Below, piece after piece: positions 1 through 46,479 of a stretch of DNA of 64,000 nt (position 1 is the stretch's first letter; the number at the start of each line of letters is the position of its first letter). The position numbers were made by a program, and so were the translations under genes. The DNA comes from Psammoneis japonica (lineage: Eukaryota): positions 124,001 to 188,000 of the forward strand of contig QPGO01000045.1 in assembly GCA_008632985.1 (NCBI GenBank). The letters run 5' to 3'. The notes below the pieces were generated by a model, which searched no databases, was not told where the DNA came from, and saw only the letters and a list, made by a program, of their open reading frames with translations.

Positions 1-429
1 GCCCTTTGTTTTCTTGTCATCAAACTTCTTCCTAAGACAAAGCCCCTTTCTTGTTGCAACTCTGGACAAAACCACATGAACCCAGTTGTCTCTGCAGTCA
101 AAGTTGTCAACAAAACCAGGCTCTCAATTGTCGTGCCCTGGAGCTTGTGTGCAGCTGTTGTGTTGTTGCACAAAACTGGGAACTGGGTCATCTGAATCCT
201 CTGACTGATTCTTGGAGTTTTTTTGTCAATGAAACCCATGACAGGAGCAGGAAAGTTGATGATGCATGACTCTCTCCTTTTGGCCACAAGAAACAGACCC
301 CCCATGCCTTCTTCTCATGCCTCAAGACAATGGGGGCTCAACTTGTGAAACACAGGCTGACCTCACCCAGCAACCAACAATCCTCATCAACTCCAAATTT
401 TTCAAAGAAATTCAAAGAAACACCTTCCT

Positions 430-1000
430 TCTTCAGCTCAACTCCATCAAAAAAGCCAACAGTGCAATTGGCCTCCTTTTCTCAACATCTTGGCCATGGC
501 AGAGCTTGAGAAGTGGGCTCACATGTCTGGTTTCATTGCCAGCTTGCTTGATGTGGGCATCTGGACAGACTGCAAACAAAATGTCCTTGGACAGCTCATC
601 TTGAAAATCCACATGCTTGTGCCTTGTGTTCAACTTTTTCCACTTGAGGTTGCTTGTTCCTTGGGTGACAATGGCGCAGGTTGGAGGAGGCTGTGCAAGA
701 GTTTTTGAGTGTGTTCCCTCTGGCACCTTCTTAAAAATGCCATCATTGGCAGCATTCCTGTCAAGATCAGTGGCAACAGCATGGGTTGCATTGCTTGGGA
801 TGTTGCTTTCCTTTGGCCCAGTGTCACCAGGCCTGCTTCCAAACATTGCTTGGTCTTGCTGATGGTGCTTTTGATGATGTGCCACTGCAAGCTGCACTTG
901 GCATTGCAGAGGGAAATGTCGAGGGCTCCACCAAAGATGGTTTCATCAGATGGCTTTGCTTCAATGGATGGCTTCCCCTTTTGTTCCAACTCTGGTCATT
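430..1000 (-). mobile_element. Degenerate Helitron-like PIF1 helicase fragment
   Basis: ORF 433..897 contains AVATDLDRNAANDGIF and HVSPLLKLCHG, resembling the 'N..R.aIN' and 'DPvLKLY.G' segments of Helitron PIF1 helicases; lies in TpA-depleted DNA; element ends not found. Confidence 0.35.
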
Positions 1001-1565
1001 GTCTCATTTGCCGCTCTCCTCTGTTTGGACTTTCCATTGTGCAAATTCTGAGTGCATTCTTCACAGAAAGCATTTCTTGATGGTGAGTCCTCCCATGGTG
1101 ATCCCTCATCCCCGATGACGACGGTGCCATGAATGTCACCACACTCAATTCAAATGGCCTGCAAGACAACCTCAAGCTTTGCTTGAGGAGGGAAAGACAA
1201 AAACAAAGCATGTTTGTCAGAGAGAGATGGAGACAGGGAGAATTTGACAAGAGAAGCATGGACAAATGCAACAGCAGCACAAGGAAATTGGCTCAACAGG
1301 TGGAAAGGACAATGGTTTTTTGGGTCGATTTCAAACTCAACACCAAATCTGAGCTGTGATTTGTCATTTGACACCTGACAGAGCATCGAGCATCTCCCAA
1401 CGTCACTCTACAAACAGAAGCGACACACGAGATGTGCGATGAGGACATCAAAAAATGCAACAACAAAAAGAAATGAGTGGCACAAGACCAACACTCGCTG
1501 CTTGCAAGCCAACATCCAAACAACAAAAAAAAAACAGCAACCAGAAACTGACGGCTTTGCTGAGT

Positions 1566-1949
1566 TGGTGTTCCCCAAGCAAGTGTGCATTTTGGTCTGA
1601 CCAAATTGGCATTTTGGTCAAACCAAAATGCTTTTGCTGACCAAATTGCCAGACTGACCAAATCAATTTGGTTGACCAAATTGACATTTGCAAAATCTTG
1701 AGCAAATTCATTTTCATGCACATTTCCACACAAACAATGCTGATGCAGCTTCTAAAAAATTTGCGCAGCATTTTGACATGCGCATTTTCCAAGGAAGATT
1801 TCCACCAAAAGCACACCAGATTCTGCCAACCAAAATGACATTTTCAGGAAGCAAAATCATTTTGGTTGAGAGCATCAATTTCATCAACAAATTTGCACCG
1901 ACCAAAATGGCAATTTGGGCAGACCAAAGTGCACATTCAGGAAACACCA
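1566..1949. mobile_element. Decayed MITE with ~50-bp imperfect TIRs, possibly hAT-like
   Basis: Left tggtgttcc..gtgtgcattttggtctgaccaaattggcattttggtc is the inverted repeat of right gaccaaaatggcaatttgggcagaccaaagtgcac..ggaaacacca; many internal gaccaaa motifs; flanks gctgagt/cctgagc are a partial TSD at best. Confidence 0.6.
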
Positions 1950-3005
1950 CCTGAGCACCATTGATTCTTTCCAAGTCCCTCTTCACATCACTCAGTTTTC
2001 TTTTTTTCCTTTCAGGTGAAATCTCCAAATGATCAGCTTGCCAATGAAATTGAAGCAATGCATTTGTGGCAATGACTTTGAAAGGAAGCTTTTGGTCTTC
2101 ATCTTGTTCAAACAAGCGGTGGTGCTCCACTTGTGTGACGATCTCAAGGCGCACATTGCCGGAACATCTTCCACACCATTTCTGACAACCCTGTGCATCA
2201 CTTGCACAGACAATTTGTGGAGTTTTGCTCTTGATGCTGTGCTTTTTTCTGGTGGACCCACTTGATTGGTTGGGCCACTGGACTGCTGCCCATTGTCTGA
2301 TCTGGACATTGTTCCCCAGAGTGTGGCAGGAAGATGGTCTCTCTTGGTTTCATCAACAGGTGGTTGCTTTGGAGCCAGTTCTGCTGTGACAGTGTTCAAC
2401 TTGAATGAACACAAGTTTCTCTTTCATCTTTCAGCAGCACTTCATTGTTTCTGTCCATCACCTGGGGCAGTTCCACCACAGTTTTGTCCAAGCCAGCGTC
2501 CCCAAAAGATGGATCCTGGCTCTTGTTGGGTCCTTCTTTGTCACCCACTTGCAGGGGCTCCGCATCTCTCTCCAGCGCATCAAGTGGCCAACCTGCACTC
2601 AAGCTGTTCTGACAATCTTGCAGATTCTGCAGAATTCGCTGACATTGGCCATTGATCTTCTCGGGCTGAACACGGCATTGAAAACTTGAAACATGGCTCC
2701 CGTTCTCTTGGAGGTCATCTGCAGACAGGAGTGGTGCGAACAATGGTGACGCCGGTGTCGACAAGTCATGGTTTGCCGGTGATGAACATCCAAACGAAGC
2801 CCAAGAGCAACGCGGACATCCTTCTCCCTAAGATTGGCCAAATGTGACATCATCAATCATTGTGATGCGCGCACAGTGGACAACGAGACAGCCGTTCACC
2901 GTTCAGCGAAGCCACACTCCAACTGCGGTACAGCAGGCCCTACAGCAACACGATCGGCTTCCGGCTTCTCATAATTTCGAACTTTGTGTCAACAATCAAC
3001 AACCA

Positions 3006-3540: not shown

Positions 3541-3907
3541 CAACAGTGCCATTCGCATCACGCGTTCGCATCTATCCGCGACATGAGCACAGCAACACAG
3601 TTAGCGTGTACACGACCACGTGGAGCACATCATTCACTCATTGAACATTCCCACTGTATCCCCACAACACGTGAGTTGGCTCACACATTGGCGCCATGAG
3701 AACAATGGTTGATGTTGCTGCTCCCACGGCGGAATTGAAGAGTTCTCACAACATCTCAAAATTCGCCGGGTTTGCCTCTTCGCGGGATGGTGTTTCCTTC
3801 TGTGCACAGAACTCACGTTGCTTGTCTTCTTCTCTCTCTTTTCAAATCTTTTACTGCCCGCCGGCCACAGTGGGCAAATCAAGCAACCGAGAAGAACCAC
3901 CCGAGCC

Positions 3908-4710
3908 ATGATCTTCCGCTTCGTCTTTCTCGCTGTTTTTGCCTCCAAGGCTTCCCAACATGGTGCACTGGGACAGGTTTGCATGTCAGGGGCAAGAAGC
4001 TTCTTCAGGGCCCACAGAAACCTCAGAAGCAAGACATTGTCATTGATCCCTGTCCTGTTGATTTAAACTCACCCGATTTGGCTGCCTGTGTAAATGGGTG
4101 GGGGAATGCGAAGGGCACAGCACGTTGCACAGCCTGCAAATCGGAGAGGAAAAAAGAGGTGAACATCGCGATTGCTTTGGGTGCTTGTGCAGATGCATCA
4201 GCAGGAGATGCGGAACATTCTGGTGGTGGTTCTGGCAACATTGCCTTGGCAGCATGCCTTGGCAATTGCAGTGGCAGCAGCGGCTGCAAATTCCGCAATG
4301 CCCGTGCTGTCGCAGGCTCAATTGGTGGAAACAAGAACAACACAACTGCGATCAGGAGTGGTCTTCACTGTGGATCCAATGCTGATGCAGGAAGAGGGGG
4401 AGGCGACTTCAATTCTGCCTTTGCAGACTGTTCTGGTGCTGACACGGTCGCCGACGCAAAAGCAGGCACCACAGGGGGCTCCAGCAACACTGCCGAGGCC
4501 ATTGTCCAGGACACAGTTGGACCACATTGCAGAGCAGCTGCAGATGTGGGAGGAGGTCCAGATCGAGCGGAGGGCAGCAACAACAAAGCCAAAGCCACAA
4601 GCATCGTTGACACTGGTCATGCTGGCACTTTTGCCACTGCCATTGACGGTGGCTGTGGCACAGCAACAGCGACTGATTGCAGCTGCACGATTTCCTGCCA
4701 TTTTTTTTTT
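3908..4710 (+). pseudogene. Decayed secreted Gly/Ala/Cys-rich repetitive protein
   Basis: Signal-peptide-like MIFRFVFLAVFASKA starts at 3908 in one frame; GxxNxAxA-type repeats (GSGNIALA, GDFNSAFA, GSSNTAEA, GSNNKAKA) lie in the frame of ORF 3772..4857; no Tyr; TpA-depleted. Confidence 0.45.
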
Positions 4711-6241
4711 GCGTTTTCTTGGAGTGTGCAGCACCTGTGGTGGAGGCGAGGAGACATGTTCCTGCCCTTGGGTGTTCTTGACAGTTGGATTGGGTCTGCG
4801 TCCACAATGGTTGCACCAACAGTTCGAATGTGGACTCTTCATGCAGCGACACTCTAGCGGAGCAAATGTGAACGCATGTCATGTGTGCACAACCAGTGTC
4901 CATCGGAGCAGTCAGATGTTCCCTCACTCTGACACACTTTCTGCATTTGAGTTCATTCAGCTGCTGTTCAATGACATGGTCAACACTTTCATTCTCCTCA
5001 AGTTTCTCCAAATCTGCAAGGTCAAACAGAACAATGTTTTTCTCATGCAACCCAACGTGGCGCCACCGGACACAGCTCCTTTTGTGCTTTCGTCCTTTCG
5101 TTGCAAACCTGTTCAACTCATTTTTGATCGTGTCGAAGTGCTCATGGGGAAGGAAGCTGAAAGTTGTCAATTTCGCGTTGCGTCATTTCTTGTGCTTTTT
5201 GGTTGAACTCCTTTTTCGAAAGCGTTGGTTTGCTGTCATCATCAGTTCTCTTTGCACATCTCTTGATCACGCGCTCGGTCCCATGAGCATCCAGCGCATC
5301 AAACACCTTCGAAGTGTCACCGGCTCCAACAGCACCAGTCACGGCAGGAGGTGGGAGCATCTTTCTCCGTCCGTGTCATTCGCTCCCCTTCTTGTCCTTT
5401 CTTCGTTGTTCAGATGGGTCTGCCAACTTGAGCCTGCAACGTTCTCCACTCACAACGATCTGATTTCATCTTCAGTGCTCCACCTTTGTACCATTCACCA
5501 TCTTTAAGCGAGAGAATTGTATGTTTGCGCGGGTGGATGTCATTGTGCTCTTCTGGACAACAAAACGTCGGTCACGAGTTCCAGTCCCGAGTAACCCATC
5601 TTTGTTGCTGTTTTTATTACTCTATTACGTAGGGCCCTACCGGTACAGGGTACCTCTCTCTCTCCTCTACTTTTCTAGCTACTACTGTAGAGAGTAGGCC
5701 CTCCTCTACTTTACACAGCATAGCACTTTGGCATAGAAGCTACTGTAGCTACTGCTAGCGTCACCTTTTAGTGATGACACAGCAAGGATCCCGTGGCGCC
5801 TTGGAAAATCGATGATCGATGTCGTGCACCTTGATCTTTGTCCTGGTAAATGACTCGAGACCTTCTTTGGCTATGTTTTCCCCCCTTTCTCGAGCCATCT
5901 ATGGTAGCTTTATAGAAAGCACTGTTGTACTAACTACCAGTGCTCAAAATGGTGCGCGCGGTATCTTTTAAAAGCAATTCTAAAACCAACTTCGTTCCGG
6001 TCTCATTGGTTTCCAACCCACTACCATCATAGAAATCTAGATAGAGCCCGGTTCATTTTCGATAACCGAAACAACTAAAGTATGTGTCTCGATTGAAACA
6101 AGTCCAGTTCAGATGGCTCTGCGTGATCCCAGTTTGTAAGCGACTTTCTACAGTTTATATACAAATGTGCGACTTGGTTGGCAACGGGTTTGGGCTGTAG
6201 CCAACTATCTTCCCTTGATATGGTAATTGTCCAGGTAGAGA

Positions 6242-10795: not shown

Positions 10796-11455
10796 TTAGC
10801 TTTCAGAAGAAGCACGTCCTCTCCCACTACCCCCACGACCTCTTCCTCTCCCACCTCCTCGTCCACGGCCACCACGCCCTCCTCCACGACCACCGCCTCT
10901 ACCCCGTCCGCCACGTCCAGACGTTCTCGGCGCACTCTGGTATTGTTGTTCTTGTTCAGCCGCACGTTCCAACAAATCGGGTGGAAGACGAAAGTACTTG
11001 ATTGCAGATCCGCGTATATAACAAGAAGGAAGCTTCCAAAAGCGGTCGCCATCTTTGGACGTGCAAATGACGTCTCTCAAATTCATATTCATCCATGCAT
11101 CGCAAGATACCAACCGTCCATTGTACGTATCACCGCCTTTGAGTTCCACCAGCAATGGCGACCCTGTCGCTGCTCTCAGCAATGATAATGGTAACTTTAT
11201 GAAATTAAAAGATGAAGAAATCATAAATCAAAGGTAAGTGAGCTAAGATTTGACTGACAAGCCGAACAGCGGGCATGCAACAGGCAGTAGTGCGCCGCGA
11301 TTTCAGAAGATTTCTCACTATCATGTAAAACGAGGAAGATGTATCTGCTCGTCCGACTAACTTCTTGATGACAACAACCAAATATCGATGCTTCTACCGC
11401 AGCTTTTCATATTGCAAAAATATTAGATGCCCGCCGCTTCAACACAACTCACCAT
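10796..11455 (-). CDS. LSM4: U6 snRNA-associated Sm-like protein LSm4
   Basis: [44 protein letters not shown] plus RGG tail; main exon 11194-10796. The start micro-exon is either ATG|gtgag at 11455-11453 or ATGATA|gtgag at 11324-11319. Confidence 0.93.
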
Positions 11456-11574
11456 GGTGATTTCTTGTGTGCTGTCAACTACTCGTCAACACTCAATCAG
11501 CGACAACGGGCCCGAACGTGTGACGGACGGACTGTCGGATTCTCCAAATCTCTCACAATTTCAAGTGTGGCAAT

Positions 11575-11736
11575 GCTGCCAACTGTCATTGACCCTGTTG
11601 GTGGTGATGCCATTGTCATGTTTGACCAACAGTCAAGTCACAGTGGTCTCAGTTGGCTGCCAGCTGTCATTGACCCTGTTGGTGGTGATGCCATTGTCAT
11701 GTTTGACCAACAGTCAAGTCACAGTGGTCTCAGTTG
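11575..11736. repeat. Tandem duplication, 2 x 81 bp
   Basis: gctgcc(a/g)..tcattgaccctgttggtggtgatgccattgtcatgtttgaccaacagtcaagtcacagtggtctcagttg at 11575 and 11656; one mismatch. Confidence 0.95.
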
Positions 11737-13939
11737 AGAGTTGTTGCAGTTTCTTGAACTGCATGCCCCACATTTCAAAATGCTTGAGAGTCACTGCAGT
11801 TTGAGCCACAAGCCCTGCATTTTAAGAGACTGCTTTCTCCATCAACTGCAGTGGGTTGGCCAATTGCACTGCTGCTCACATGTGTTGCTGGTGCATGGGT
11901 GCCTCCATCAAAATGAGAGTCCTGCACAAGTGCTTTCCCCCGCGTCTTCCTTGCATTGTGAACAATCAACTGCTTTGCACGAGACAGCTGTGGATCAAGG
12001 ACTGTCTGGCATGCATTTGCAAGAATGTTCTGATGGACAATCAACCGCAGCGATGGCTTAACTGATTGGTTTTGAAAAGCAGCATTTGTCGTGACAATCG
12101 CTGTCATGCAAGCATCGTGCGTGGAAGAACCCTCGCCAACCAAAAGCGCAGCTGTTCCATTGCTGTTTCAGACTCACTTAAACCTGCTCTCAAGAGATCT
12201 GCACTCTAGCCACCAGCCATTCACATGCGCAGGCACTTCTCAGTTTTCATTGCGGAGCTGAAGTTTGCGTGCAGTCTGTGATAAAAACCACACTCATCGC
12301 AAACAGAATCAAGAACAACTGACAAAAGAATCTGGGTTTGAATCCCTTCTTCACAATTCCCGACAGGCAGGGTTCACAGGCCAGTCAAAGCACGAGATGT
12401 CACATTTGTCGATGAATTGTGGGCACACAAAAGTGCCTGTGAAAGAATTGCCGAAAAGACGTAAAAACTGGCTGCACACATTTTGAAACAAACCAGAAAA
12501 GGCGGGGGGACTTAGCTGCCAATGAATTCATGCAAACAATTTCCATTGTTTGAACTAACAAACTTTATGTCATGTGACACGTTTCTCACGACGCACTTAC
12601 CTGAACTTGTCAATGCAGCCATTTCACTGGGAACGGTGCCCGTGAGAGCATTGCAGCAAATGCTCACCCTTTCTGTAAATGTGGGAGAGAATTACCAGCA
12701 ATTTAGAATCATCACATTACATGCCAAAGAGGAATGAGACAATGCATCGCCTCAACGGATGTCGCACTCACCCAAACTTCTTAATGAGCCCAATTCACTT
12801 GGAAGAGTGCCTTCGAGACGATCATTGAAGTTAAGGCACAAATCATCTGTACAACCAGGAGAAAGAAAGAAAGAAAGAAAGAAAGCATCGCAAGGTCAGA
12901 ACCCACGGGGTAGAAAAACAAACAGTGCAACCCATGCGGCACTCACTTAATTTCGTCAGCAAACCAATTTCTGTGGGAATGGTGCCAGTGAGATCACCCA
13001 CTTCGAAGCTTAAAGAGGCTGTGAACATGAGAAAGCAATGAAGGCAGCGACCAAGTTAGAGGCCCATGCAGCAGGGACATGGCCCCATCATTTGCTCAAG
13101 CCAGCGACTTGACAGTTTACCTGAGTCGGAGAGCAAGCCAAGATCTCGCGGCATCGATCCCTGCACCTGGTTGTGACTCAAATCTAGTCTGCCAACATCC
13201 TGACCAAAACATGTTAAACCATGCCAAGCACACTCATCGCTGTCATTCAACCACTCCTCCTTGTTCTCCCAACCAATTCCATTGGTGCTGTAGCACAAAG
13301 TGGCCAGTGCAAAGCGCTGCATTTTTTGCTCATCTGAACAGTCGTCAAGAAATGCGTTTCCTTCTAGCCAAGACAAGGCCCGGGACTGAGGGGAGGAAGG
13401 ATCTTTGAGTGACTCACCAGCATCCAATGATGCAGTTGCAATCAGATCTTCCACCGCAGACATTGGCACTGGTGCTTGGGTTGCTGGTGCTTGGGTTGCT
13501 GGTGCTTGGGTTGATGGGCCGCTTGATTCCCGGAAAACCACAACAACTAACACAACTGCAGCAACAGCAGCAACCAACGCAAAGAGAAGAAGGAAAATGC
13601 CCATTCGTTTGTGTCTCACCAACCATGAAAGACATTTTTTGTTGTGACTGTCTCCATTGGCGGAAGAATGAACATCATCCGCAACATTCTGAGTTTGATT
13701 GTCAGCAGAATGAATGATTTCACCTTGCGGTGCATTTTCCATGGCGGCAACCCGTTCCCACAATTGATGGACTTCTTCAAGCATCTCGGTGCAGTTGTCA
13801 TTCTCCACTGACCTTGCTTCCAGAACTGGTGGCGCGGTTGCTGTTCTCTCGCTGTCACAATGGGGAGCAATGGGTGGGGCCCTCGTTTGCCTCATTGTTT
13901 TGTTTCCTGGGTCTCGTCCTGAGCCCCTCACAGTGACAG

Positions 13940-14146
13940 TGTTCGAGGGCTCCAAGGGCTGCATGCACTCTGTCTTGTTGCAAACTTTTGCTTTTCTGAC
14001 ATTGTGATCTTTCTGATCTGTTCTGTCTAAATTCAATCTTGTCAAATGTCTTGTGAGTCTTGCTGTTCTTCGAACTTCTTCATCTTCTAAGATCTTCTGC
14101 GGGATTCCCGACCAACCCGATTCAATCTCGGGAACTCCCTCCGACA
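13940..14146 (-). repeat. 3' LTR
   Basis: TG...CA termini; direct repeat of 18651-18859; preceded on the minus strand by a polypurine tract. Confidence 0.93.
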
Positions 14147-14160
14147 CTCTCCCCTCGGGA
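14147..14160 (-). promoter_or_regulatory. Polypurine tract of the Copia element
   Basis: Minus strand cccgaggggagag directly before the TG of the 3' LTR. Confidence 0.8.
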
Positions 14161-14169
14161 ATCTCGTGC

Positions 14170-17100
14170 GTCTCTGCAGCACTCGTCATGCATTCGTCAT
14201 TGCCAACAAACTTCGTTGCATGCTTTTCAAATGTGGGGCCAGACAAATTCTTCGTAAACATGTCCAAAGTCATGTCGTCTCCGCTAACCCAGATGCAATC
14301 AACAATGCCCGCCTCCTTCAGTTCTCTCAAAAAATGCTGCTTGACTTCAATGTGCCTCGTGCGTCCGCCCACACTCCAATTGTCGATCAAATCTTTGGCA
14401 CCCTTGTTGTCAACGCACAGCTTCACAGGTGGTTTCACTTTTAATCCCATGGAATTCAACACCCTCATTGCATGCATCATGTCTTGTGCACACAAAGTAG
14501 CACTGAACAGTTCTGCTTCTGCAACCAACAGTGCAACAATGGGCATCATTTTACTTCGCATCGAAATGGGCGCCTCGTGCAGACACGTGCTCCAACCATT
14601 CACGCTGCGCCTTGTCTCCTGATCCTTTGCATGTTCTGAATCACTCTTGCCCATGACAATAAATTCATGTTCCTTGGCTCCATTCCATTTGGCATTCGGT
14701 TTCAAAAATGATCCTCTCTTTGGTGTTCCGACGCAGCATCGCATCACGCGTTTCATTGCGGCCACATGAGCTCTCACAGCACCACTCATGCACCTTGATG
14801 GCTCCCTCACTGCATTCAAAATTTCGGGTCTCGTCCATCTCATCATGTGTGACAACTTTCCTGTTCCAGATCTGTAAATCTTTTGACCTTTGTGGTCCAT
14901 CATTTCTTTGTCGCTGCCTTTCACGAGTGATGAGCCACCTGGTGCTGGAGTCCTTGGACAAGTTTCTTTTCCCAAATCAAACTCGTCTTCAAAGCTCTGC
15001 ATCATCACTGGTTGAGCAAGTTTCACCCATCCTTTGTCTCTGTTGATGTCAACCTTGCATCCAACATGTTCTTTTAATTCTCCTAACTCGGTGCAGTCAA
15101 ACAGTCCTTTCATTTGATCTTTCACTTCTTTCACACGTTCTGTTGGTCCTGCCACCAAGCAATCATCAACCCAAGTGAGCCACATGACCAATCCTTCCTT
15201 AAACCACTTGAACTGTAAACAAGGATCAGCTCGGCTCCTCGCATGTTCCATCTTCTTGAATGCCTCCTGCGTTTTGCGCAAAATGACATCGCCGCTTGTT
15301 TCAGTCCACAAATTGTCCTCAACAACAACAACACGACGTTTTCTGGATAGAATCTCTCAAATCCTTGCGGCACTTTCACATGGAGTTTCTCTCCTTCAGC
15401 AAATCTTCCATTCAGAAATGCTCCTTGAACATCTGGCAGTTCGGCCCACAAATTTGCCACAACAATCAACACCAGTGCGATTCGCACTGTGATGTCATTC
15501 ACCACTGGTGCTGACTTGTCACTCTCCTTGTGGTGCTCTCCATCAATTTGCTCAAATCCACGAGCATCAATCCTTGCACGACAGGTTCCGTCTGCTTTCT
15601 TCTTCATGGCCCACGTCGAACTTAAAATTTTCGCGTCGCGCGGCACCTCATCTGCTGGCACTTCTTTCCAGGCCTTGCACCTCTGGAATTTGTTGTGCTC
15701 TTCCTCGACTGCATCATTCCATTCTTCCACATCATCAGTCTGCATGGCTTGGTTGTGCTTCACAACCTTCAGTTCCACAGCATTGTCGAATCCGCCTCCA
15801 ATCCCGGCTCCGACCAAAGACACTTCTGGTTCTTTCGACTCCAGTCCATGCATGGCCATCGGATCGAAACCATCTCCACAGAATGATGACAACTCATTCA
15901 GTTCCTTCACATGAGCATAAAATTTCTGCTCAGCAGGTGTCAATTTGACGTTTTCAATCTCCGCAATGAGTCCATCAGGCGGTTTCACGGCTCTTCCAGA
16001 TCGAGTCATTGGCGCATGTTTTGGCACAGAATCGGCAGATTCGCCCGATTCATTCATCTCTCCCCCGCCAACAGACTCGTTAGGCTCCTCGTCATCACTG
16101 TCTTCATTTTCACCAATGTCCACCTGATCTGCACTCTCCCCGACTTCCACATGGGGTTCCTGAGTCAACACTTCAGGTGTGATGTCTTCTCCGGGGTGCA
16201 CTGGCTCTCCAATCGCTTCCTGGCGTTGACAGCACATGCGCTTCAACCAGATGATGTCGCGCATCACGTAGATGGTCCCTGACTTTGGGTCCAACATTTC
16301 ACAACAGTCTCCGTCATGATCAATGGCGTGTCCCACCATCACACACTGAACACCTCGATCAGCAATCTCAGGTGCACTTTTCTTCTTGACAGTGACCGCA
16401 CCGGCCTCTCCCCATGTGCGCAGATGCTTCGCAAATTTTGGAATTTGACCCGACCAGTGCTCGCATCGCGTGGCCACTTTTCCGTCTAGCTCGACAGTCA
16501 TGAGTCCGTCCAACAATGTCACAGTTTCAAATGCCTTGGGAAATGCCTGACACCTCATGTCCAATGGCACATTGGCATGATGCATGACAGCTCTGCCTTC
16601 ATTTGCCAAACTTGCGAATCCCAATTCGGCCAAATGATTTTGTTGCGGCGTGTTTCTCGCGGTGAACTCAAATTGCAGATTCATCTTCCAATCACTGCTC
16701 TGAGCTCTGTCTCTCAACTTCTTGTTCTCACCAGCATTGTCAAGCCTCACACACTTGAGTTCCTTGCCTGCTTTAGTCCACTTGCTCCACTGTTCTAGTG
16801 CAGGCTCCACCATGCTGTTCTTCGTCTTGAAAAATTTTGAAAATTTCAACTGCGTGCGCTCGTCGACCACAATTCTCCAATGGCGCTTGGAGTTGACCTT
16901 GGGACCCTCCTTGAGTTGCTTGATGCTGGCAATGTCCAAAAGCACTCGATTGCCTGCACTCTTAGCTGGTTCGTGTTGACTCTCCTGTGGCACATTCTTC
17001 TGCTTGGCTTTTCCCGCCGCACACGATTCGCACGGCGCCATTCCGCCACGAGCAATTTCCCAACCCAAAATTTTTGCAATGCGTCTCGTCTCATCTTCAT

Positions 17101-18580
17101 TTGGATGTCCCAATTCACAATGAGCTTTCTCAATGCTGAGCTTCCTTGGCATCATTGTGTTGGCCACTTCACCTTGTCCTCGTTTCATGTGCATCGCGAA
17201 TGCCATGCCTCGATTCGTGCGCATCTTGACATCAAATTTTATCTCGACGCCATTCTTACAAATCCATGTTGCATTTTCGTCACCTCCAAGTGTCCATCCT
17301 TGCATCTGCATCTTGGCAATGCTGAATGGATTGAACTCATTGCTTGATGCAATGCTCACATCCTTCAGAGTGGCACCCACAAGCTCACATCCGTTCTTGT
17401 CGCACACGGTGCCCGGTGAGTCGACAACAGACTTTGCTCCTTCTTCTGCACCATTGCTGGCGGCCAACTTGTCATCAGCAGTTGCTTGTTTCACGTTCTT
17501 GGCACCTCTCATGCTTGCACAAGAATGAACCGATGATCCTGAATCCGCCACCCATGCTTCTTCTGACTCCAACAATTTCAGAGTCGCTGGAAATCCAATG
17601 GTCTCCGCACTCGTTGGCAACAGCTCGACTTTGGCTCCGGCATCAACATTTGACAATCCGGTCTCGTTGCTTTTCTTCTGTTTCTCTTTAAACCACGCTG
17701 GAACCTTGTCCGCATTGTCAGGATTCATCCAACAATCCTTGCTCCTGTGACCCGTTTTGCCACAGTTGAAGCACTTTCCTTTAAATTTCTTGTCACCACC
17801 TCCACCGCCTTTCTCAGGCTTCCTCGGCTTGGTGCACTCACAGGCCTCATGCCCTTTCTCTCCACAGTTGTGACACATGACACTCGACTCTGTCGCTGTC
17901 AAACTAACTTCGTTTGTGCTTTCTGACTCGGAATTGCCACTTGCATTCCTCCACAACTGTGTCATCGCTTCTTGCAAATGCTTCATCTTCAATCCGTTAC
18001 CTTGGATGCGTTGTTCAGTCATCACAACTGACTTGCACACCTTGGGCGCTTTCTCAAATGCGACGGCAATCAACTCATCATCGGGAATCTTGTGTGATGC
18101 CGCATTGAACTTATTCTCAATGCCCTTCAACTGCTCGAACAATTTTCGAGGTTCTTCGTTGTCCTTCAACGTCACCTTGTTCATTTCGCGACGTAACTCG
18201 ACCTTCGACATCAGGTCCTGCAGCATGCACATCTCGTGCAATGCCTCCACCATTTTCCATGCTAGCCCACTGGGCCATTCAGTTGTCTGAGATGCACGCA
18301 CAATGCCCGTCAGTCCTTCCGCAGCAAACACCATCGTGAAGTTTGCTGCTGCAACGGCACTTCGTTTCTTTGCTTCTTTCTTCTTCTTTCCATCATCAGC
18401 AGTTTCATCAATGACGTCCGTTTCAGCATTTGGCAAGTCCGCTTCAACTGTCTCATTCATTGCTCGCGCAAATCCGTGCACACTGGCATGCGCAACCATC
18501 CTCATCCACCAGACCTGAAAGTTCTCATGCTCACCATCAAAGCTTGGCAAGCACACCGATTTCTCTCCTGCAATCTCCAT
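14170..18580 (-). pseudogene. Copia gag-pol, frameshifted near 15280 and Tyr-depleted
   Basis: CHNCGEKGH and CFNCGKTGH knuckles, WVADSGSS protease, HxxLGH...CESC, RLDNAGEN, TPQQNHLAE integrase, DVQGAFLNG, WVDDCLV RT, DNKGA/RTRHIEVK RNase H; split across ORFs 15131..18592 and 13056..15311. Confidence 0.92.
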
Positions 18581-18629
18581 CTTGCTTGACACTCAATTGT
18601 CTTTCTTATCTCACAGCCTCTGGGGCCTT

Positions 18630-18650
18630 CGCCTGTCACACTTCGAAGTG
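18630..18650 (-). promoter_or_regulatory. Putative non-canonical primer-binding site (complementary to a tRNA-Asp anticodon arm)
   Basis: No TGG-type PBS after the 5' LTR; minus-strand gtgacaggcg, 11 nt from the LTR, is complementary to CGCCUGUCAC of eukaryotic tRNA-Asp(GUC). Confidence 0.45.
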
Positions 18651-18859
18651 TGTTCGAGGGCTCCAAGGGCTGTGCGCACCCTGTCTTGTTGCAAACTTTT
18701 GCTTTTCTAATGTTGTGATCTTTCTGATCTGTTCTGTCTAAATTCAATCTTGTCAAATGTCTTGTGAGTCTTGCTGTTCTTCGAACTTCTTCATCTTCTA
18801 AGATCTTCTACGGGATTCCCGACCAATCCGATTCAATCTCGGGAACTCCCTCCGACTCA
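18651..18859 (-). repeat. 5' LTR
   Basis: Direct repeat of 13940-14146 with about ten substitutions; outer end ccgactca has 2 nt more than the other LTR before the TSD. Confidence 0.92.
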
Positions 18860-19500
18860 GACAGCTCCGGGGTTCACATGTCCAGAGACACCGGTAGATT
18901 CGGAGGACCTGGAAGCAGTGGCAATGCCCACAATTTCAGGTCTTGAAGCAACAGTGCCTTCCGCATGTCTGCCCATGGGAGCCTCAGGCTTGGAATCGCC
19001 ACTGTCAACGTGTTTCTTTTTCCTGCCGGCTTTTCTTGAGTTGCCTTCGACAAATGAAGGAGTGACTGCAGCTTTTTCTCTATCCGTGAGCCATGGGACT
19101 TCGCTGGCAAACAAGGTCGGGCGCTGGGCGTCCTTCTCACTCTTGGTGTTGCTCATGCTTCTGTCCCAGCAGCAACACTCAGGTCACGAGCAACGCAAAA
19201 TAGCAGCAATTTGCCAATGAGTGGTCAATGAAAATGATTCAATCACGGATCGTATTTCGTTTCCTCGCGCGGGTTCCCGGTCGTGGTAAATGCAGTGGTC
19301 CTGCGATTCAAACTCGTGGTCATCGCTGTGTCGGCAGCTTGTGGCTACTCTGCTCCACTAGAGAGTCTGCCCGTGAGATCTTCGTTGCTGTCGGCATCCA
19401 TGCCGGTCACTCTCTCTGTTGGCTTTAGGTGGCAGCAGGCCCTTAGAGCTCACTGCCATCCTCTCGCCTCTCGCATCCTTCTGGCATCATCCCTCCTGTC

Positions 19501-20855
19501 ATGATGGCAAGGTTCTTTTTGCCACATCAACGGAAGGTCACGGTGCCTCTTTTCACAGCAATGATCCTCATGTTGACGTTTGCTTTTCTCATCCTCCCTG
19601 GACTCAACATGGACTTTCTTGAGCATCGTCAGACCAAGAGCGCCACTCGCGCTCAAAAGGTGTCAATGGAGTCGTCATTTCACGACAAGAGCATTGCATG
19701 GTCTCCGGATGTTCGCCAATGCTGGCTCAATGATGATCATGTTGGCAACTCTGAAAAACCTCCAGCCCAAGTGCTCTTGACTAACTACGGTTGGAACCAG
19801 GCAAATCAAAGCCATGCATTGAAATTCTTCAGGTCCCCACGACAGCGAGAGTTGCTTCGAGGAGTTGTCAATCACCCGTGGTTTCATCCAGCAACATGGG
19901 AGCAGCACTGCAACCGTTCAGCACCATTGAGCAACCAAACTCGGCATTGCGTCTTTCTTGACGTGGAAACTTGCTGTGAACGACTCTGGCCCTGGCATGG
20001 GGGCGAACAAGGAGCGAGCAATGCAACCTCTGACACAGGGGGGAATCGCACTGGCACAACAAGTCGCGATCATTGTGAAGTGATTGAGGATGCATTGAAC
20101 CAGCCAATTGTGAAGTTGCCGGGTTCCAGGTTGACAGTTTTTGACTGTGACCGTGCAGGACCCTCAAAATGTGCAAGACGAGACAGAAACAAGGACGAGA
20201 GATTAGCGCTGGTGTCCCTTTCGGCTCATTCCAGACAACACATTGCCTCGATCGACCAGGGCATGCCACCTCCGGCATGCAGACCTTTTGAGTTGAACCA
20301 AGAACAGTGGGAAGGCGTCACATCTTGCAATGAAACCTCGCGTCCAGTCCTGGCATCATTTGTTGGAAAATTCCGATCCAAAGTGAGGAACGACCTGAGG
20401 ACACTCCACAATTGCAAAGACCTTTTGATTGAACAACCGTCAGTTGTAGAGCATTGCTTTCCATGCAACAATTGCTCGCATGGAGAATTGTTCTTTCGTT
20501 CCAGGTTTGCACTGACACCCCGCGGCCAACACCTGTTTTCGCATCGTTTCACTGAGGCAATGTCGGTTGGGGCCATTCCCGTGGTGCATGCAGATGATCA
20601 TGTTGTGCCTTTTCAAAAGGAGCTTGTAGATTGGAGCAAATGTAGTGTGACAATCCCAGAAGCAGATTTCAACAAAACAAAGGGCATTTTGTTGAGCATC
20701 TGGCCGACGAGCAATGTCGCACGCGCCAAAACGCATTGGAGGTGCATGACAGGTTCATGAGGACAGGCGATGGCACCATTTCTGGGATCATTGAAGGATT
20801 GGAGCATGCATTCAGAGGAACCCACGCTGGTTGCTCATTTGGTCCATCATTGTGA
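19501..20855 (+). pseudogene. Exostosin-family (GT47) glycosyltransferase, hypermutated, frameshift near 20700
   Basis: N-terminal TM anchor; LASFVGK, SRFALTPRG, FSHRFTEAMSVGAIPVV, VPFQKELVDW motifs; one Tyr in 419 aa with family Tyr positions reading His/Cys; the C-terminus continues in another frame. Confidence 0.8.
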
Positions 20856-22199
20856 ATGCCGCGCACATTGAAACCAGCAACGAATTGAATCATGCATCAC
20901 CGTCATCAATGTCACCAGCCAGCTCAATTTAGAAGTGCATGCAAAGGCAGCAGTGGCCCCTTTGACAGCACCAAATTGGAGGATGCTCACCTTGTCCTGC
21001 TTGCAGGCTTTTTTGCGTTGATTTAACTATGAAAGCAAAGCAGTGATGAGCAAATCTTCTTTCTGCAGGTCTCACTCGCATGGCACCGTGAACTGTGAGG
21101 TGGCAAAAACTCTGCAGCGACTGGAGATCTCAGCAGGAGGCCTTCCAAGTTGACTCAGAGGACAATCAGCTGACCAACTTTGCACACCCAAGGATGCTTT
21201 AGCCAAAAGTCTGATCTAGCCTGAAGCATTGGGTCCAGACAGTTGGGAGCTGAAAAGAAGATTGAGAAAAAGTGCTGCTTGGCGGTTCTCCACAAAATCA
21301 CCTTCACTGCATGTTGCAAGATGCGCCAAACAGTGTTTGAGTGCATCATCTCTCATTGCACCCACGTTGTTTGGGCCCAACACAAACAAGCAGAAATTGT
21401 TCTTTGTCATTCCAAGAGCAACAAAAACACTCATCTTGGGAAAGCAGAGCTTCCCAAGGAGCCCCAGAGTTAAAGCAGAGCTTGCACAAAGAGAGCAGGA
21501 CACCTGGTTGGTTGACAGACAAGCCATGACTTTCCCTCTTTTGCATGTCCTCCAGCTGATGCTCTTTGACATGATCAAACAGCTCAAGAGCAAAAGATTT
21601 GACTCACACAAGTGACGCACATTTGGCGCTTCTCAGCCAATCCACAAAAGAACAAGAAACAGGCAGCACACCAATGCAAAAAGCTTCCCTTTTGGTGCTT
21701 TCTCAGCCAGCGCACAATGAGGAATCTCCACAGCACCAAGAAAGAGTGACCAGGACCTGCTGATGTGGCAAAAGAGAAATGTTGGCAGCAGGGCTTTTTT
21801 GGCCACTTTTGCGCGGCATTTTCAACTTCAGAGAAAGAGCTCAAAAAAAGACCCAGTGCTGTGGTTGCTCTTCATTTTTTGTCAACTTCACTGATGACCA
21901 AGCACCTCTTTTTTCTCTTGCTGCAGCTGCTGCCATGGCGCCATTGTTCTGGAGTGTGCTGACAGCTGCAGTGCTTTGAGTGCATGTGCAACACAGTGAG
22001 CACTTTGTTTGTCAATGACGAAGGTGACACAGCCACTGTCACGGCACAGCTGACAATGATGGAGAGGTGCTGGTGTGATTGCCAAGGTGCCCAACAGCGC
22101 TCTTCATCCCTTGACTTGTTCTGACCAGCACAAAAGAGTTTTTGTTCACTTTGTTTTCAGCCAAGGACCATCTTTGGAATTTTGGGGAGAAGATGACAG

Positions 22200-24990
22200 T
22201 GGCAAGTGAAAAGAAAAAGAGTCGAGCCAAACCAAGATCAACAAAGAACAAAACCCAAATTCTGTGTTCAAGGTGCTGCTGCACTTCCACCCTGGTGCAA
22301 CTCCGGCAACAAGCTGGCCCACACCCCCAGTGCACCAGCAGTGCGGCAAGGGCATGCAACGACTGGCCAACATTGGCACCACCACCAGGTGGTGCCAAGC
22401 CAAAACAACTGGTGACAGCGCAAGTGCCTTTTGCAGCAAGACGTTTTGCTTCGCCAACACTGGACTTGAAAACAGGTCGAACCACAGTCAACCAGTTTCT
22501 CAATCTGTGTGTTGAGTGCACCAGGTGTTCTTCAACTGAATCAAACAGGTGTGCCTTTTCTCTTGCCAAGTGGTTGTCAATGCTGGAGCATGTGGCCTTG
22601 ACTTCCACCTTGGCATCTTGTCATTGGGATGATTTCCCAGTCTTCGAATCGTGTCCGTGTGCTGCACAATTGTGCGAATCCCACAACTCCCACCATTGGG
22701 ACCACACGCAAGAGACCACTGTTGCTGCCCAGTCCAGTTGTCAACCTGTGTCCACATGTGCCTCACCACCACTGTGTGACAAGCAGGTTTGTTGAGCAAT
22801 GTTCCATTTGACTGAGAACCCACCATCAAAAATTTGATGCCACCACATCCTCTCTTGGGAACAGAAGACCAATTGCATGCTGTGATGAACACCATCAGAA
22901 CAAACAATTTCTTCATGGAACCAGGATTCCAAACACACTGACAGCATGCCTTGCAACAATGGTGAGGTGGAGATGTCATCACACTTCTTGCAGAGACCTT
23001 GAAGAAATGTCCGATGCCATTGTTCATTGTGGGGACATCAAAGAATGTGGTCTCCATCCTCCATGGGATGCTGGCAGTGAACACAACAATCCGGCCGAGT
23101 GGGGGGTGCATCTGTGGACAATCTCATTTGCAGGCAAAAGATCTTGAACCAGCTTCGCTGCACTGACTCGCTGGTGAATGTTTCTGGACATCAGCTTCAC
23201 ATGGACTTGCCAATCAATGGTTTTAAATGTCTCCACAGACCATCCACACTTCTCCATCATGTAATCTCGGAGAGCCAGAGATGATGCTTCATGGCGTGAC
23301 ACTGGTTTGAAGTTTGCATTGACCAACGAATCATTGACCACAAGTTCAGCTGCACAGCGAGGGAATTGCGGTGCCAGCTCCAGCTGCTCTGAGCACATGC
23401 CGTGGCACCTCCCCGCCAAGCAGTCCACATGAACACATGATTTTGCCGGCAACGACAACTGCTCATGCGGGATGGAATCGTCCTGGTGACTCTTCACCCA
23501 CTGCACCACCACTGGGGTGCCACCGGAATCATCAACTGAGTGTTCTGAAAGCTGTTGAAAGGAATGCATGATTTCATGTGGGACATCCCAGTCAGGGGCC
23601 AGTGCACTCACAACATGGTGTTGATGAGCGCAGTTGCTGACCGGATCAGGAGATGCTTCTTGGTCATCCAATGGAGGCAGCTTGTGAGACGACAAAGCAG
23701 CATTGCAAACCAGCAAGGAATTGTTGCAATGAGAATCAATCCCCCCAAAGAAAACCTGTCTGAATGCACTCCACAACTCGAAGAACAAAAATGGAGGACA
23801 GACAACAGTCTCCACATGCTTCAGCTCCACAAGAAGAAGGCCGTAAACCGAACACTGGGCCCGCACAATCAGCCAAGGGGTTCCCATCTATGGTCAAAGT
23901 CCATCCAAATGACCCATCGAAATCCACCACCAACCCATCACTCCCCACCACAGCCTCATTGGTTCACATGATGTCAGCCAGTTCAAAAATGGAAACAAGT
24001 GAGGTGAGGTCGTCAAATGAAGTGACCTCCCAAGGAGAAAGAGATTCCAACATTTCCACAAAGTCGTTGGGAATTGGCACAGCCCCAGGGACAGAAACGG
24101 CTGTTCCACAGTTGACAACATGCCATTTTCCATTGTCAATGGCATCCACAGTGATGGGTGCCGCCAATGGGGAAATGTCTGGTGCGGTTTCTAGAGAGTC
24201 GACAGAGTCAGCAATGTTGTCAGTCACTGGAAACACTTCAAATTGGTTGTTGGACCGAATGTGCAAATGCTCTTCAAATGGCTCATGGCATGCTGCAAAC
24301 TGCGAACATCATTCTCATTCTATCTGCAGACACCAGCCAATCACCCAGAGGCAATTGAAGCTCCAAAGCACCTTCTTCACACAAGAGGGAACAAACCTTG
24401 TGCCATTGAGTCCATGCACAAGCAGACGGGGGGGCTTGTTCAACTGGGTTCAGCACAGACACGCTGCTCAACAAAGAAGGATCTCCTTTCACTTTAGCAG
24501 CGTCCAGAAACCTGCCTTCCGGTGGGCTTCTTCAAACCACTGCAGCTGAGTTGCTCATTTCCTGGTGGAATTTTCCATCAAACTTTCCACAAGAAAACAC
24601 CGCCATCATGCATGCTGACTGCATGCTTGGCTGCTCTTGTCAATGCCAAGGGTTGTGCCCTGGCACTGGACAAGATGAGCCAGTGGGGAGATGTTCAAGC
24701 ATTTCTTTGTCAGAGCTGACCCACCATTTAACTTGGGAAGTGCCCGCATCAATCAAAGATGTGCAGCAACCCACACGAGACTCTGTTTTGTCGCTCTGCT
24801 GGGTCCTCAGCCAACAACGCGAGACTTTCTTGGCTCCTCCCACAGCGCCCATCACCTGGTGGTGTTTTCAACAGTGCACCGAACAAGAGGCAATGTGCAA
24901 AGCATCCCAGGGCACCGAGGTGATTGACAGCAAAGGGGGGTGAAATCAGACACTGGCATGGTTGAAGTTAGAGAGAACTCAGTGAAAAGC
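22200..24990 (-). mobile_element. 5'-truncated non-LTR retrotransposon with RNase H (Ambal-like), decayed
   Basis: Fragments GSDG..GSFGW..GPVFG.RPSSCGAEACG, QWVKSHQDD, TIDW, WHQIFDGGFSVKW and LRNWL in collinear order across frameshifts; boundaries approximate. Confidence 0.72.
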
Positions 24991-25119
24991 AGGGGCCGGT
25001 GCGCAAGATTCACGCGTTATCTTCTTTCCAGCTGCATGACACGTGTTCACAATTTGACGAAATTGACATCGATCCAGAACCGATCAAGCTCAAACGAGTT
25101 GCATAAACAAACGAAAACA

Positions 25120-25803
25120 ATGGCTCGCCCAATGTCACATTGCATCGTGTTGCTTTTTGGTGTCTTCTTCTTCGCGCCAAACCAATGCGCCGCATTTGCG
25201 CCGCAACAAGTGTCATCGACCACTCGACGACAACTCGACACTACTGCTTCTCGTGCATTGCACATGGCGGCCCCACCAATGGTGGGGGACAACGCTGATG
25301 AATCAAAGATGTCTTCACAAACTCGACGTGAGTCAATCAAGAAAATATTTGGAGGAGTTGGTTTGGCGTGGTTGTCCATATCAAACCCGGCATTTGCCGA
25401 AGAGGAGATGGAGCTCAAGCGTGCAAACAATGCCAAAGCGGCCTTTGACGACTTGCGTTTCGAACTCAATGATCCCAGCGGTGGTGTCGCATATCTTCAA
25501 TCTAAAATTGACAAGGAAGACTTTCCTGAAGTTATGGAGTTCACAAAGGGATATGATCTGGAACTACGAAAAAAGAAAATTGGACGAGCCAAGAAGCAAT
25601 TGACAGACGTTGCCTTTCGAGACACGGCTACGCTGACGGCGAATGCGATTACGTTTGATTTGATTGGGATTAACCGTAGTTCGAGACCGGGACAAGAAAA
25701 CAAGGAGCAAGCCAACAAGTATCTTAATGAGCTCCGGACTGACCTGAGTAACATGATTGACTTGGAAAAGACAATCGACTACGAAGACATCAATACGTTC
25801 TAG
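25120..25803 (+). CDS. Plastid thylakoid-lumen protein, PsbQ-like
   Basis: Signal peptide + AAFAP, twin-arginine TRRES + hydrophobic stretch + PAFA cleavage site, helical mature domain (YDLELRK, FDLIGINR); 227 aa. Confidence 0.8.
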   Translation: MARPMSHCIVLLFGVFFFAPNQCAAFAPQQVSSTTRRQLDTTASRALHMAAPPMVGDNADESKMSSQTRRESIKKIFGGVGLAWLSISNPAFAEEEMELKRANNAKAAFDDLRFELNDPSGGVAYLQSKIDKEDFPEVMEFTKGYDLELRKKKIGRAKKQLTDVAFRDTATLTANAITFDLIGINRSSRPGQENKEQANKYLNELRTDLSNMIDLEKTIDYEDINTF

Positions 25804-35356: not shown

Positions 35357-35460
35357 CTCGAAACTAGCCTCTTCTTGGATTATCTAATAATCTATATTGT
35401 GAAGAGTTGTAGAACCGAGACGAGTAAATCAATCCAATCTTATCCCACACCTCTTTGTCT

Positions 35461-41081: not shown

Positions 41082-41304
41082 AGTCTCCCTCACCCTCGAA
41101 ACACATGCAAAGACTATGGTATAGCTGGAGCAAGTTCATGCGGCACCATCAAGAGAGTGCACTGATGTGCTGACTGCACTCGAAAACATTTCACACCGGG
41201 TGTCAGCTGCACACCACCACCAAGCTCTCGCCCTGAACAACCAAACAAGTCAAGGGATTTGCAGATGAACTTCAGCCACCCAGGCTGTTTGCTGCTGTTG
41301 CCAC
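41082..41304 (-). pseudogene. Diverged duplicate of the 3' end and 3' flank of the RPH1-like gene
   Basis: Direct repeat of 63403-63613; encodes SSKQPGWLKFICKSLD versus SSKQPGWLKFIYKSLD in the gene. Confidence 0.85.
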
Positions 41305-44073: not shown

Positions 44074-44469
44074 GATGGGTTCCAGTCCCAGGTGGGACTT
44101 TTTGTGACATTGGGCCCGCAGAATTCTACGTGCGAGCTCTGTGGTAAAATTGTCAAGCAATGGACACATGAATGATCGCCAACAGAAAAAGAGACAATTT
44201 TGCGAACGCATCTCCTCCTCCACACTTGAAGCACATTCTTTGCAGCATGCCCGGGTGTGTTCTTCAGACATTGAAGAATGTGCCCAGCGCATTTTTGTTG
44301 ACACAAGTGTGGATGACAGAAAGCCTTTGGCTTCGCAAAACAGGCAGTGTGGAACAATTTTTTGTGACAGAACACGCAGAAATGTGCGCGCGAAACATGC
44401 GACGGATGACAAAAAACAATTGTGCCACAGTTCAGCAGTGCAAGGTCCCACCTGGAGCTGGAACGCGTC
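44074..44469 (+). mobile_element. GACGCG-MITE copy 1 (396 bp, TSD GTTT)
   Basis: TIR gatgggttccagtcccaggtggga / tcccacctggagctggaacgcgtc; gttt on both sides. Confidence 0.88.
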
Positions 44470-46336: not shown

Positions 46337-46479
46337 TGCCGCGCATTGTCCGAGTGCGCGCTTGCCTCCACCTGCGCATCTGTCGAGTCCTCCACCTTGC
46401 TCACGCACCTCACCACCGCACCCCTTGGTGATGGCACTTGGAAAGGTCCGACCCACGGGCTCATCCTTCATTGGCAGGA

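Follow-up and report, generated by a model that had tools for sequence, protein, structure and literature searches.

The window analysed here, 64,000 nt of the genome of the diatom Psammoneis japonica (assembly GCA_008632985.1, contig QPGO01000045.1, positions 124,001 to 188,000 of the forward strand), carries a Ty1/Copia long terminal repeat (LTR) retrotransposon whose proteins have been stripped of tyrosine. This loss is the coding read-out of an erasure of the dinucleotide TpA, which is turned into TpG or CpA, and its target is neither Tyr nor Copia as such. In all likelihood, the erasure results from a fast hypermutation that acts on DNA after integration and independently of the strand, is specific for TpA and prefers those TpA steps that are followed by a pyrimidine (TAY).

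Only 4 Tyr are left in the 1153-aa open reading frame (ORF) A of the element and 2 in the second one, ORF B, which are the counts given by the original prediction, although the latter frame measures 766 aa from stop to stop and not 751. Among 120 Copia relatives the median Tyr content is 2.7%, and the probability of finding at most 4 Tyr in 1153 residues is 6e-10. For a test by columns, 114 of these relatives (the six with less than 2% Tyr being excluded) were aligned to the element by tblastn, which yielded 1466 codon columns with at least 20 relatives in each. At the 23 columns where Tyr is the consensus (at least 50%), the window reads Cys at 9, His at 8, Tyr at 3, Phe at 2 and Gln at 1, and at the six columns with at least 90% Tyr it reads Cys at 3, His at 2 and Tyr at 1, whereas each of the other residue classes was retained at 54-94% of its columns. 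Cys or His is thus found at 17 of the 20 changed Tyr columns, which means that the changes are almost only A→G or T→C. A like-for-like control, in which the first 40 of the 114 relatives were used as queries on 73 environmental Copia loci from metagenomes, gave Cys or His at 20 of 30 Tyr columns for the window compared with 54 of 1673 (3.2%) over 70 environmental loci (Fisher p = 8e-22), the highest value for any single control locus being 12.5%. One relative poor in Tyr (P0089, 0.7%) was considered as another mutated copy and rejected, as its 18 Tyr columns read Phe 8, Tyr 7, Cys 1, His 1 and Leu 1, an ordinary exchange of Tyr and Phe.

The intact relatives mostly carry Tyr where the element has Cys or His, which was the alignment check proposed with the original prediction. 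Among the motifs that had been put forward as former Tyr sites, the case is clear for TIYGLKQA (Tyr in 100% of the relatives), EYVGC (95%), DSDYAKD (74%) and VGYA..GDCYRM (96% and 94%), and weak for GTCRAR (43%) and KQHFLRE (21%). Two strings cited from elsewhere in mutated blocks, SCGAEACG (23811-23834, minus strand) and LTHDQHC (47027-47047, plus strand), do exist, but their attribution to the RNase H of a long interspersed nuclear element (LINE) and to a second gag was not confirmed by Pfam, which gave no family at E≤1 for either of the two ORFs. In a feature search, RNase H clusters scored 0.87, below the cut-off of 0.9, and this match is a lead only.

Over all residues, 86 conserved columns (consensus of at least 70%) are replaced in the element, of which 32 correspond to one TA-type step, 6 to a CpG-type step and 4 to the same transitions in other contexts. 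When A→G occurred at the first codon position, the preceding base was T in 23 of 32 cases, compared with 4 of 150 for retained codons starting with A (Fisher p = 4.5e-18), and the changes predicted for a TA that spans two codons (Thr→Ala, Ile→Val, Met→Val and Asn→Asp) were all observed. The observed/expected ratio (o/e) of TA in the element (Table 1) is lower than in any of its 73 environmental relatives (0.18-0.88). In bins of 1 kb, the window shows two composition states, and a two-state segmentation delimited six sharply bounded erased blocks that occupy 39.6 of the 64 kb, with a TA o/e of 0.02-0.11, CA and TG at 1.4-1.8 and CG at 0.28-0.80. In the remaining 24.4 kb, TA o/e is 0.57-1.09 and CG is close to 1. 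Both an Ostalpha gene and a tandem gene triplet lie in these normal blocks, and the erasure is confined to clustered tracts of foreign or mobile DNA.

The two LTRs of the element provide a first view of when the erasure took place. Their alignment contains 9 differences, six of which oppose TA to CA or TG, one is CpG-type and two are other A/G changes; moreover, two ancestral TA sites have become TG in one of the repeats but CA in its partner. Since LTRs are identical at integration and these now differ mainly at TA sites, the erasure must have acted after insertion. A second Copia copy, about 87% identical with 395 differences, was found in contigs of a public sequencing run, and the 35 differences that were classified, all within 15763-16014, include 4 CA|TG double sites, 1 TA|CA, 10 CpG-type rows and 16 others.

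A still clearer comparison is offered by a 396-nt non-autonomous element with terminal inverted repeats (TIR) that start GACGCGTTCCAG and with 4-bp duplications (GCAT, TCTC and GTTT), which is present in the window as three copies of different ages, here called X, Y and Z. Copies X and Y differ at 30 positions: 24 are TA in X and either CA (13) or TG (11) in Y, five are CG in X and CA or TG in Y, and one is a CG of Y that became TG in X. There is no difference outside TA or CG and not a single transversion, so that copy Y has changed at 24 of 30 TA (80%), keeping 6, and at 5 of 27 CG (19%), and at no other site of its 396 nt. Changes on the two strands were not clustered, with 15 runs seen between X and Y where 12.9 are expected. 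In Copia, Tyr→Cys, which reports an A of the sense strand, occurred 9 times and Tyr→His, which reports an A of the antisense strand, equally often with 8 cases. Finally, an exostosin-like gene copy next to the retrotransposon is affected as well. In a comparison with 60 of the 150 relatives listed, its 7 consensus-Tyr columns read Tyr 1, His 4, Cys 1 and Trp 1, and the 12 Tyr of its closest relative among the matches listed (P0241, 63% identity) correspond to His 7, Cys 4 and Tyr 1. Altogether, the changes on two strands, the differences between LTRs, the TIR element and the exostosin-like copy exclude RNA editing before reverse transcription as the cause.

The letters around each TA determine how easily it is lost. 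Survival of the NTAN words in mutated relative to normal blocks ranges from 0.01 (ATAT, ATAC/GTAT) up to 0.46 (TTAA), and all ten words fit the product of their half-site survivals, which are 0.10 for TAT, 0.17 for TAC, 0.37 for TAG and 0.68 for TAA. This product fit implies that the A of either strand was mutated independently, with a preference for the 3′ neighbour in the order T, C > G > A. When the baseline was taken from those 48 of the 73 environmental relatives with a TA o/e of at least 0.55, survival in the retrotransposon was 0.06 for TAT, 0.09 for TAC, 0.29 for TAG and 0.32 for TAA, and the order did not change. The polarised comparison of copy X with copy Y points in the same direction: the strand with TAY was the one changed in 13 of 16 informative events (p = 0.02), and mutation reached 6 of 6 TA with two TAY half-sites, 16 of 20 with one and 2 of 4 with none. 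Tyr is therefore the most affected residue because its codons (TAY) are the best substrate. In all three conserved Tyr codons that survive, a pyrimidine precedes the T.

With regard to timing, TpA loss is faster than CpG decay, and this in turn is faster than background substitution. Within the block that holds the retrotransposon, CG o/e is 0.7-0.8 at the Copia element and the exostosin-like copy but 0.23-0.39 at 21-25 kb, whereas TA is uniformly gone, an indication that TpA erasure saturates fast while CpG decay works as a slower clock. On the other hand, erasure was not constant for each domain, but episodic or directed at given copies, as deduced from two untouched elements found in mutated DNA. 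One is copy X of the TIR element; the other, at 3006-3540, is a second unmutated TIR element, some 535 nt long and with inverted repeats of roughly 100 nt at its ends (91-93% complementarity), which lies in an island (2929-3609) with a TA o/e of 0.8, a CG o/e of 1.4 and a GC content of 0.42, and is probably another young insertion into erased DNA. A third unmutated island was observed between two mutated blocks at 58971-59692 (TA o/e 1.09, CG o/e 1.36), and a search of it for terminal repeats found none.

The consequences for reading frames are peculiar. As had been proposed, proteins are disabled by missense changes (TAY→TGY for Cys, TAY→CAY for His) and not by new stops as in repeat-induced point mutation (RIP), and the blocks are in fact depleted in TAA and TAG. 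The only products of TAA are TGA and CAA, and those of TAG are TGG and CAG, so the change of TA into TG or CA cannot make a stop. Counted per kb and strand, TAA drops to 2.4 in the blocks versus 10.4 outside and TAG to 1.6 versus 11.6, while TGA stands at 23.6 versus 18.2. The absence of in-frame stops from the Copia element is thus explained by an erasure that makes none and removes TAA and TAG. The same explanation holds for ORF B, which continues across the 3′ LTR and some 880 nt of adjoining DNA down to 13056 because no stop is left in its frame. The nearly intact appearance of the element is therefore partly a by-product of stop removal, although the slower CpG decay (CGA→TGA) can still yield some stops.

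The identity of the retrotransposon is well defined (Table 1). The LTR pair has TG..CA ends and is flanked on both sides by a 5-bp target-site duplication, CTGTC (13935-13939 and 18860-18864), and the domains follow the order gag, zinc knuckle, integrase and reverse transcriptase (RT) of the Ty1/Copia type, with Pfam matches to zf-CCHC, SH3_retrovirus (integrase-associated) and RVT_2, and a weak one to Retrotran_gag_2. At E≤0.001, the search gave 211 relatives that share these domains, the top match having 56% identity, and those with names include two diatoms, Amphora and Leptocylindrus; the element presumably belongs with the diatom CoDi-like clade. The polyprotein is split into two ORFs by a single frameshift near 15281, behind which the paralogous contig carries one extra letter, and has no in-frame stop. 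ORF B, as a stop-to-stop frame, occupies 13056-15356 on the minus strand and extends well past Copia. The tail behind the 3′ LTR (13056-13934, minus strand) encodes a transmembrane stretch and, in our own reading, looks like the start of a leucine-rich-repeat receptor, while Pfam returned only sub-threshold matches for this flanking part; a copy of such a receptor gene, or the DNA next to it, may have been the insertion site of the retrotransposon.

Table 1. Position of the retrotransposon, its parts, the erased blocks and the other mobile or host-type sequences in the window.
Feature	Position	Strand	Remarks
Ty1/Copia LTR retrotransposon (presumably CoDi-like)	13940..18859	-	4920 nt; TA o/e 0.12, CG o/e 0.76
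5′ LTR	18651..18859	-	207-nt direct repeat, 96% identity; aligned ends
3′ LTR	13940..14148	-	207-nt direct repeat, 96% identity; aligned ends
ORF A	15131..18592	-	1153 aa; gag, zinc knuckle, protease/integrase, first half of RT; 4 Tyr
ORF B, Copia part	14172..15356	-	second half of RT and RNase H region; alignment of relatives ends at 14172
Single frameshift ORF A/ORF B	15278..15284	-	frame switch mapped between 15278 and 15146
Erased block holding Copia	11428..25490		14,064 nt; 99 TA left; TA o/e 0.11, CG 0.58, CA 1.63, TG 1.55
Mutated block	7..2924		TA o/e 0.02, CG o/e 0.28; segmentation
Mutated block	3611..5487		TA o/e 0.05; segmentation
Mutated block	41126..51898		TA o/e 0.09, CG o/e 0.43; segmentation
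Mutated block	52274..58966		TA o/e 0.06, CG o/e 0.32; segmentation
Mutated block	59702..62986		TA o/e 0.11, CG o/e 0.80; segmentation
TIR element copy X	51889..52284	-	unmutated island (30 TA, 27 CG) between two mutated blocks; youngest
TIR element copy Y	45222..45617	+	30 differences from X
TIR element copy Z	44073..44481	+	older; 73% identity to X; 2 TA left
Exostosin (GT47)-like gene copy	19447..20760	+	Pfam PF03016, E = 1.4e-19; 1 Tyr in 437 aa

Other features of the window complete this picture. Just within the left border of the block that holds Copia there are two tandem 81-nt units (11575-11736) with 99% identity. The Ostalpha gene occupies 32183-33853, and its named relatives are all diatoms, with at most 69% identity; one copy of the tandem gene triplet has a weak match to a hydroxyproline O-arabinosyltransferase-like protein.

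The sequence itself is supported at the level of reads. Contigs built from exact 31-letter words of a sequencing run (X1), at a word depth of 58-77, matched 11707-14031 with 2 differences and both 16049-17525 and 17912-18742 with none. Of two further runs, X2 covers 10000-11194 only and X3 contributed nothing. In total, the window and the full-depth contigs differ at five positions, four of which oppose CpG to CpA (12052, 15025, 17754 and 17912) and one is of another kind, which suggests that CpG-type variation is ongoing in the Copia block between the assembly and the reads.

Among the environmental loci, three deserve a comment. The metagenome contig L026 (3829 nt) carries a Copia of another family, with about 65% nucleotide identity to the one in the window and a CG o/e of 0.92. 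Its 28 Tyr columns read Cys 9, His 8 and Tyr 10 (p = 7e-18), with the same loss of TAY first, and it is the signature of TA erasure at an earlier stage and in other DNA. A weaker signal was obtained for L013, with Cys or His at 5 of 25 columns. A different pattern was observed for L060 (4602 nt), with a TA o/e of 0.18, a CG o/e of 0.07 and a strong asymmetry of TG over CA on the coding strand, but which retains 18 of 29 conserved Tyr; this contig might represent avoidance of TA and CpG in a living element, or some other process.

From these data, the following course of events is very likely. The step 5′-TpA-3′ was converted into TpG or CpA by an A:T→G:C transition that hits the A of each strand independently and favours an A before a pyrimidine (TAT, TAC > TAG > TAA). 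The conversion covers the Copia element, its LTRs and the surrounding 14-kb block including a host-type gene copy, and stops sharply at the neighbouring genes. Coding capacity is killed by missense, through Tyr→Cys/His and, for a TA that spans two codons, through Thr→Ala, Ile→Val, Met→Val and Asn→Asp, and the deletion of TAA and TAG stops leaves the dead ORFs open. As for the chemistry, the footprint quite possibly reflects an enzyme that deaminates adenine, leaving hypoxanthine to be read as G, and we infer that targeting may follow the silenced, CpG-methylated state of mobile DNA and that the activity would come in bursts as a genome defence. A wider proposal, that diatoms and chlorarachniophytes share a DNA adenine-deaminase defence, maybe common to the whole Stramenopiles-Alveolata-Rhizaria (SAR) group, which acts in bursts on either strand of new or silenced mobile DNA at T-A-pyrimidine and faster than background mutation, is conceivable but rather doubtful.

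Several points weigh against the hypermutation just described or its chemistry. Ordinary lineage divergence accounts for 44 of the 86 replaced conserved columns. The three tandem gene copies (35400-40650, about 2 kb apart, 73-80% identity) are untouched in their normal block, and the unmutated copy X inside mutated DNA indicates that position in a block is not sufficient for mutation. None of the five differences between window and contigs is TA-type, so there is no sign of present activity at this locus, and run X1 is probably the source sample of the assembly, which makes its support read-level and not independent. Deamination is deduced from the footprint, and this fits an adenine-directed enzyme (T-A-Y) and a thymine-directed one (R-T-A on the other strand) alike. 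Moreover, no deaminase domain was detected by Pfam among the 29 ORFs of the window that were scanned.

The last ambiguity leads to a thymine chemistry, for instance a TET/JBP-like dioxygenase that oxidises the T of R-T-A to 5-hydroxymethyl- or 5-formyl-uracil, with which the context data agree equally well, as T-A-Y is R-T-A on the opposite strand. Oxidised thymines mispair with G, which would result in T→C, and neither the targeting nor the outcome would differ from those described above. Such a route is unlikely, given that nothing in the window favours it in particular and that the only published account of the signature proposes adenine deamination, likewise without proof (Mettrop et al., bioRxiv 10.64898/2026.01.13.699255). 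The idea that Cys and His are natural to this Copia lineage, or that low TA comes from codon usage or selection in an active element, finds some ground in L060, whose low TA (o/e 0.18) with most Tyr kept shows that TA avoidance exists without Tyr loss. Nevertheless, it has practically no chance of being correct: at these columns Tyr is the residue of the 114 relatives, reaching 100% at YGLKQ, and none of the 16 relatives in an alignment of 17 sequences has Cys or His at more than 2 of its 17-18 Tyr columns, 13-17 of which are retained; TA was lost to the same extent in the LTRs, in non-coding flanks and in every frame, and the element has a frameshift.

Editing and artefact can be judged on similar grounds. 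In animals, ADAR is known to hypermutate viruses and retroelements from A to G, and an ADAR-like enzyme could have edited A to I in the retrotransposon RNA before reverse transcription, with a copy already hypermutated at integration. A preference for U before the edited A, as described in the Discussion of the Bigelowiella natans preprint (10.64898/2026.01.13.699255), would agree with this. However, an enzyme that edits the sense RNA would produce Tyr→Cys but no Tyr→His, which makes up 8 of the 17 changes; the two LTRs, which are the same when an element integrates, now disagree at TA sites; and the footprint is also found in a DNA transposon copy, in flanking DNA and in a host-type gene of opposite orientation. 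The 3′ preference (T, C > G > A) is also at odds with that of ADAR, which favours G, and altogether this explanation is hardly credible. Slightly less remote, but still highly improbable, is a sequencing or assembly artefact in which modified bases of silenced DNA were systematically misread. Long-read base callers do err at modified bases, the blocks also look CpG-methylated from their CpG depletion, and no sequencing platform is recorded for either the assembly or run X1. Against this, noisy reads would fall short of 31-letter-word contigs at a depth of 58-77 with 0-2 differences per 0.8-2.3 kb, and a miscall would repeat one letter where the LTRs and the two Copia copies read TG versus CA at the same site. 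Copies X and Y of one element, moreover, differ in their fate, and the unrelated metagenome contig L026 shows the Tyr→Cys/His signature at 17 of 28 columns. The reading we prefer is a TpA-specific hypermutation of integrated DNA.

The interest of this finding is that targeted hypermutation as a defence is established for cytosine (RIP, APOBEC), while DNA adenine has so far been the subject of a single preprint on a single alga. The same TpA-specific signature is now seen in a diatom, a lineage of another supergroup branch and ecologically dominant, where it reaches saturation on transposons. The window also offers internal natural experiments, in the LTR pair and in an element present both as a mutated and as an untouched copy, and a TAY > TAG > TAA fingerprint that any candidate enzyme must reproduce. 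It further contains a warning for annotation: erased DNA keeps long ORFs that can be annotated as intact genes, and Tyr-poor, Cys/His-rich 'proteins' of this kind are fossils. Should a natural DNA adenine deaminase be involved, it would be relevant to base-editing work, and a shared adenine-deaminase defence would mirror RIP and be the first natural editor of DNA adenine in genome defence. If so, the TAY fingerprint and the partly erased L026 would serve as handles on the enzyme and its range.

Parallels can be found in several known systems. Fungal RIP (in Neurospora and others) converts C to T mainly at CpA, which makes TpA and stops, lowers GC and mutates both duplicates. Like RIP, the erasure is a transition hypermutation at the DNA level that inactivates mobile or duplicated DNA in sharply bounded tracts and shifts dinucleotide frequencies, but here TpA is destroyed, CpA and TpG are made, no stops are possible and GC rises. 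RIP was therefore discarded as the cause, since the direction is the opposite (TA lost, CA and TG gained, TAA and TAG down 4- to 7-fold) and RIP mutates all copies while copy X keeps its 30 TA and copy Y 6. APOBEC3 deaminates cytosine on minus-strand cDNA during reverse transcription, in a strand-specific way that makes stops (TGG→TAG). It shares with the present case a deaminase-type, context-specific hypermutation that kills retroelements, whereas its cytosine, strand-specific and stop-creating features are missing from the window. Hyperediting by ADAR is similar in the A→G change and in the preference for U/T before A, but it acts on one RNA strand and only on retro-copied sequence, unlike the changes on both strands, in a DNA transposon, in flanks and between LTRs described here. 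As in the CpG decay of methylated transposons, the blocks lose CpG to TpG and CpA (CG o/e 0.28-0.80 versus about 1 in gene blocks), which fits the report that methylation of transposable elements in diatoms depends on DNMT5a (PMC9998398). TpA loss is nonetheless faster than such decay, as seen in copy Y (5 of 27 CpG versus 24 of 30 TpA) and in the young Copia element, with a CG o/e of 0.76 at a TA o/e of 0.12.

The best parallel comes from Bigelowiella natans. A full-text literature search gave no account of TpA erasure in diatoms, and its terms were found only in the preprint on this alga. In mutation-accumulation lines, two integrated viral regions received 231 of the 302 new mutations; with one exception these were A→G or T→C, always at TpA, and they arose in only some of the lines. 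Moreover, TpA-depleted coding sequences were enriched for reverse transcriptase and DDE domains, and the authors suggest, likewise unproven, an ADAT2-like adenine deaminase (Mettrop et al., bioRxiv 10.64898/2026.01.13.699255). Its main text, in the version consulted, makes no mention of diatoms, CpG, trinucleotides, context or flanking bases. As far as this source goes, the two systems agree in the almost exclusive A→G/T→C change at TpA, which becomes TpG or CpA depending on the strand, in the confinement to foreign DNA with the remaining genome at baseline, in a long-term TpA depletion with CpA and TpG enrichment (there in clustered 1-kb windows) and in an episodic look, with only some lines hit there and an untouched beside a mutated copy here. 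On the other hand, B. natans is a chlorarachniophyte (a rhizarian) where the affected DNA comes from giant viruses and virophages, whereas in the diatom (a stramenopile) an LTR retrotransposon, a TIR element and adjacent gene copies are involved. Erasure is near saturation here (TA o/e 0.02-0.12, compared with 0.45 in the viral region), is coupled with CpG decay and follows a TAY > TAG > TAA context for which the main text of the preprint has no counterpart. Finally, what was caught in B. natans as new mutations in a pedigree is preserved in P. japonica as a fossil footprint.

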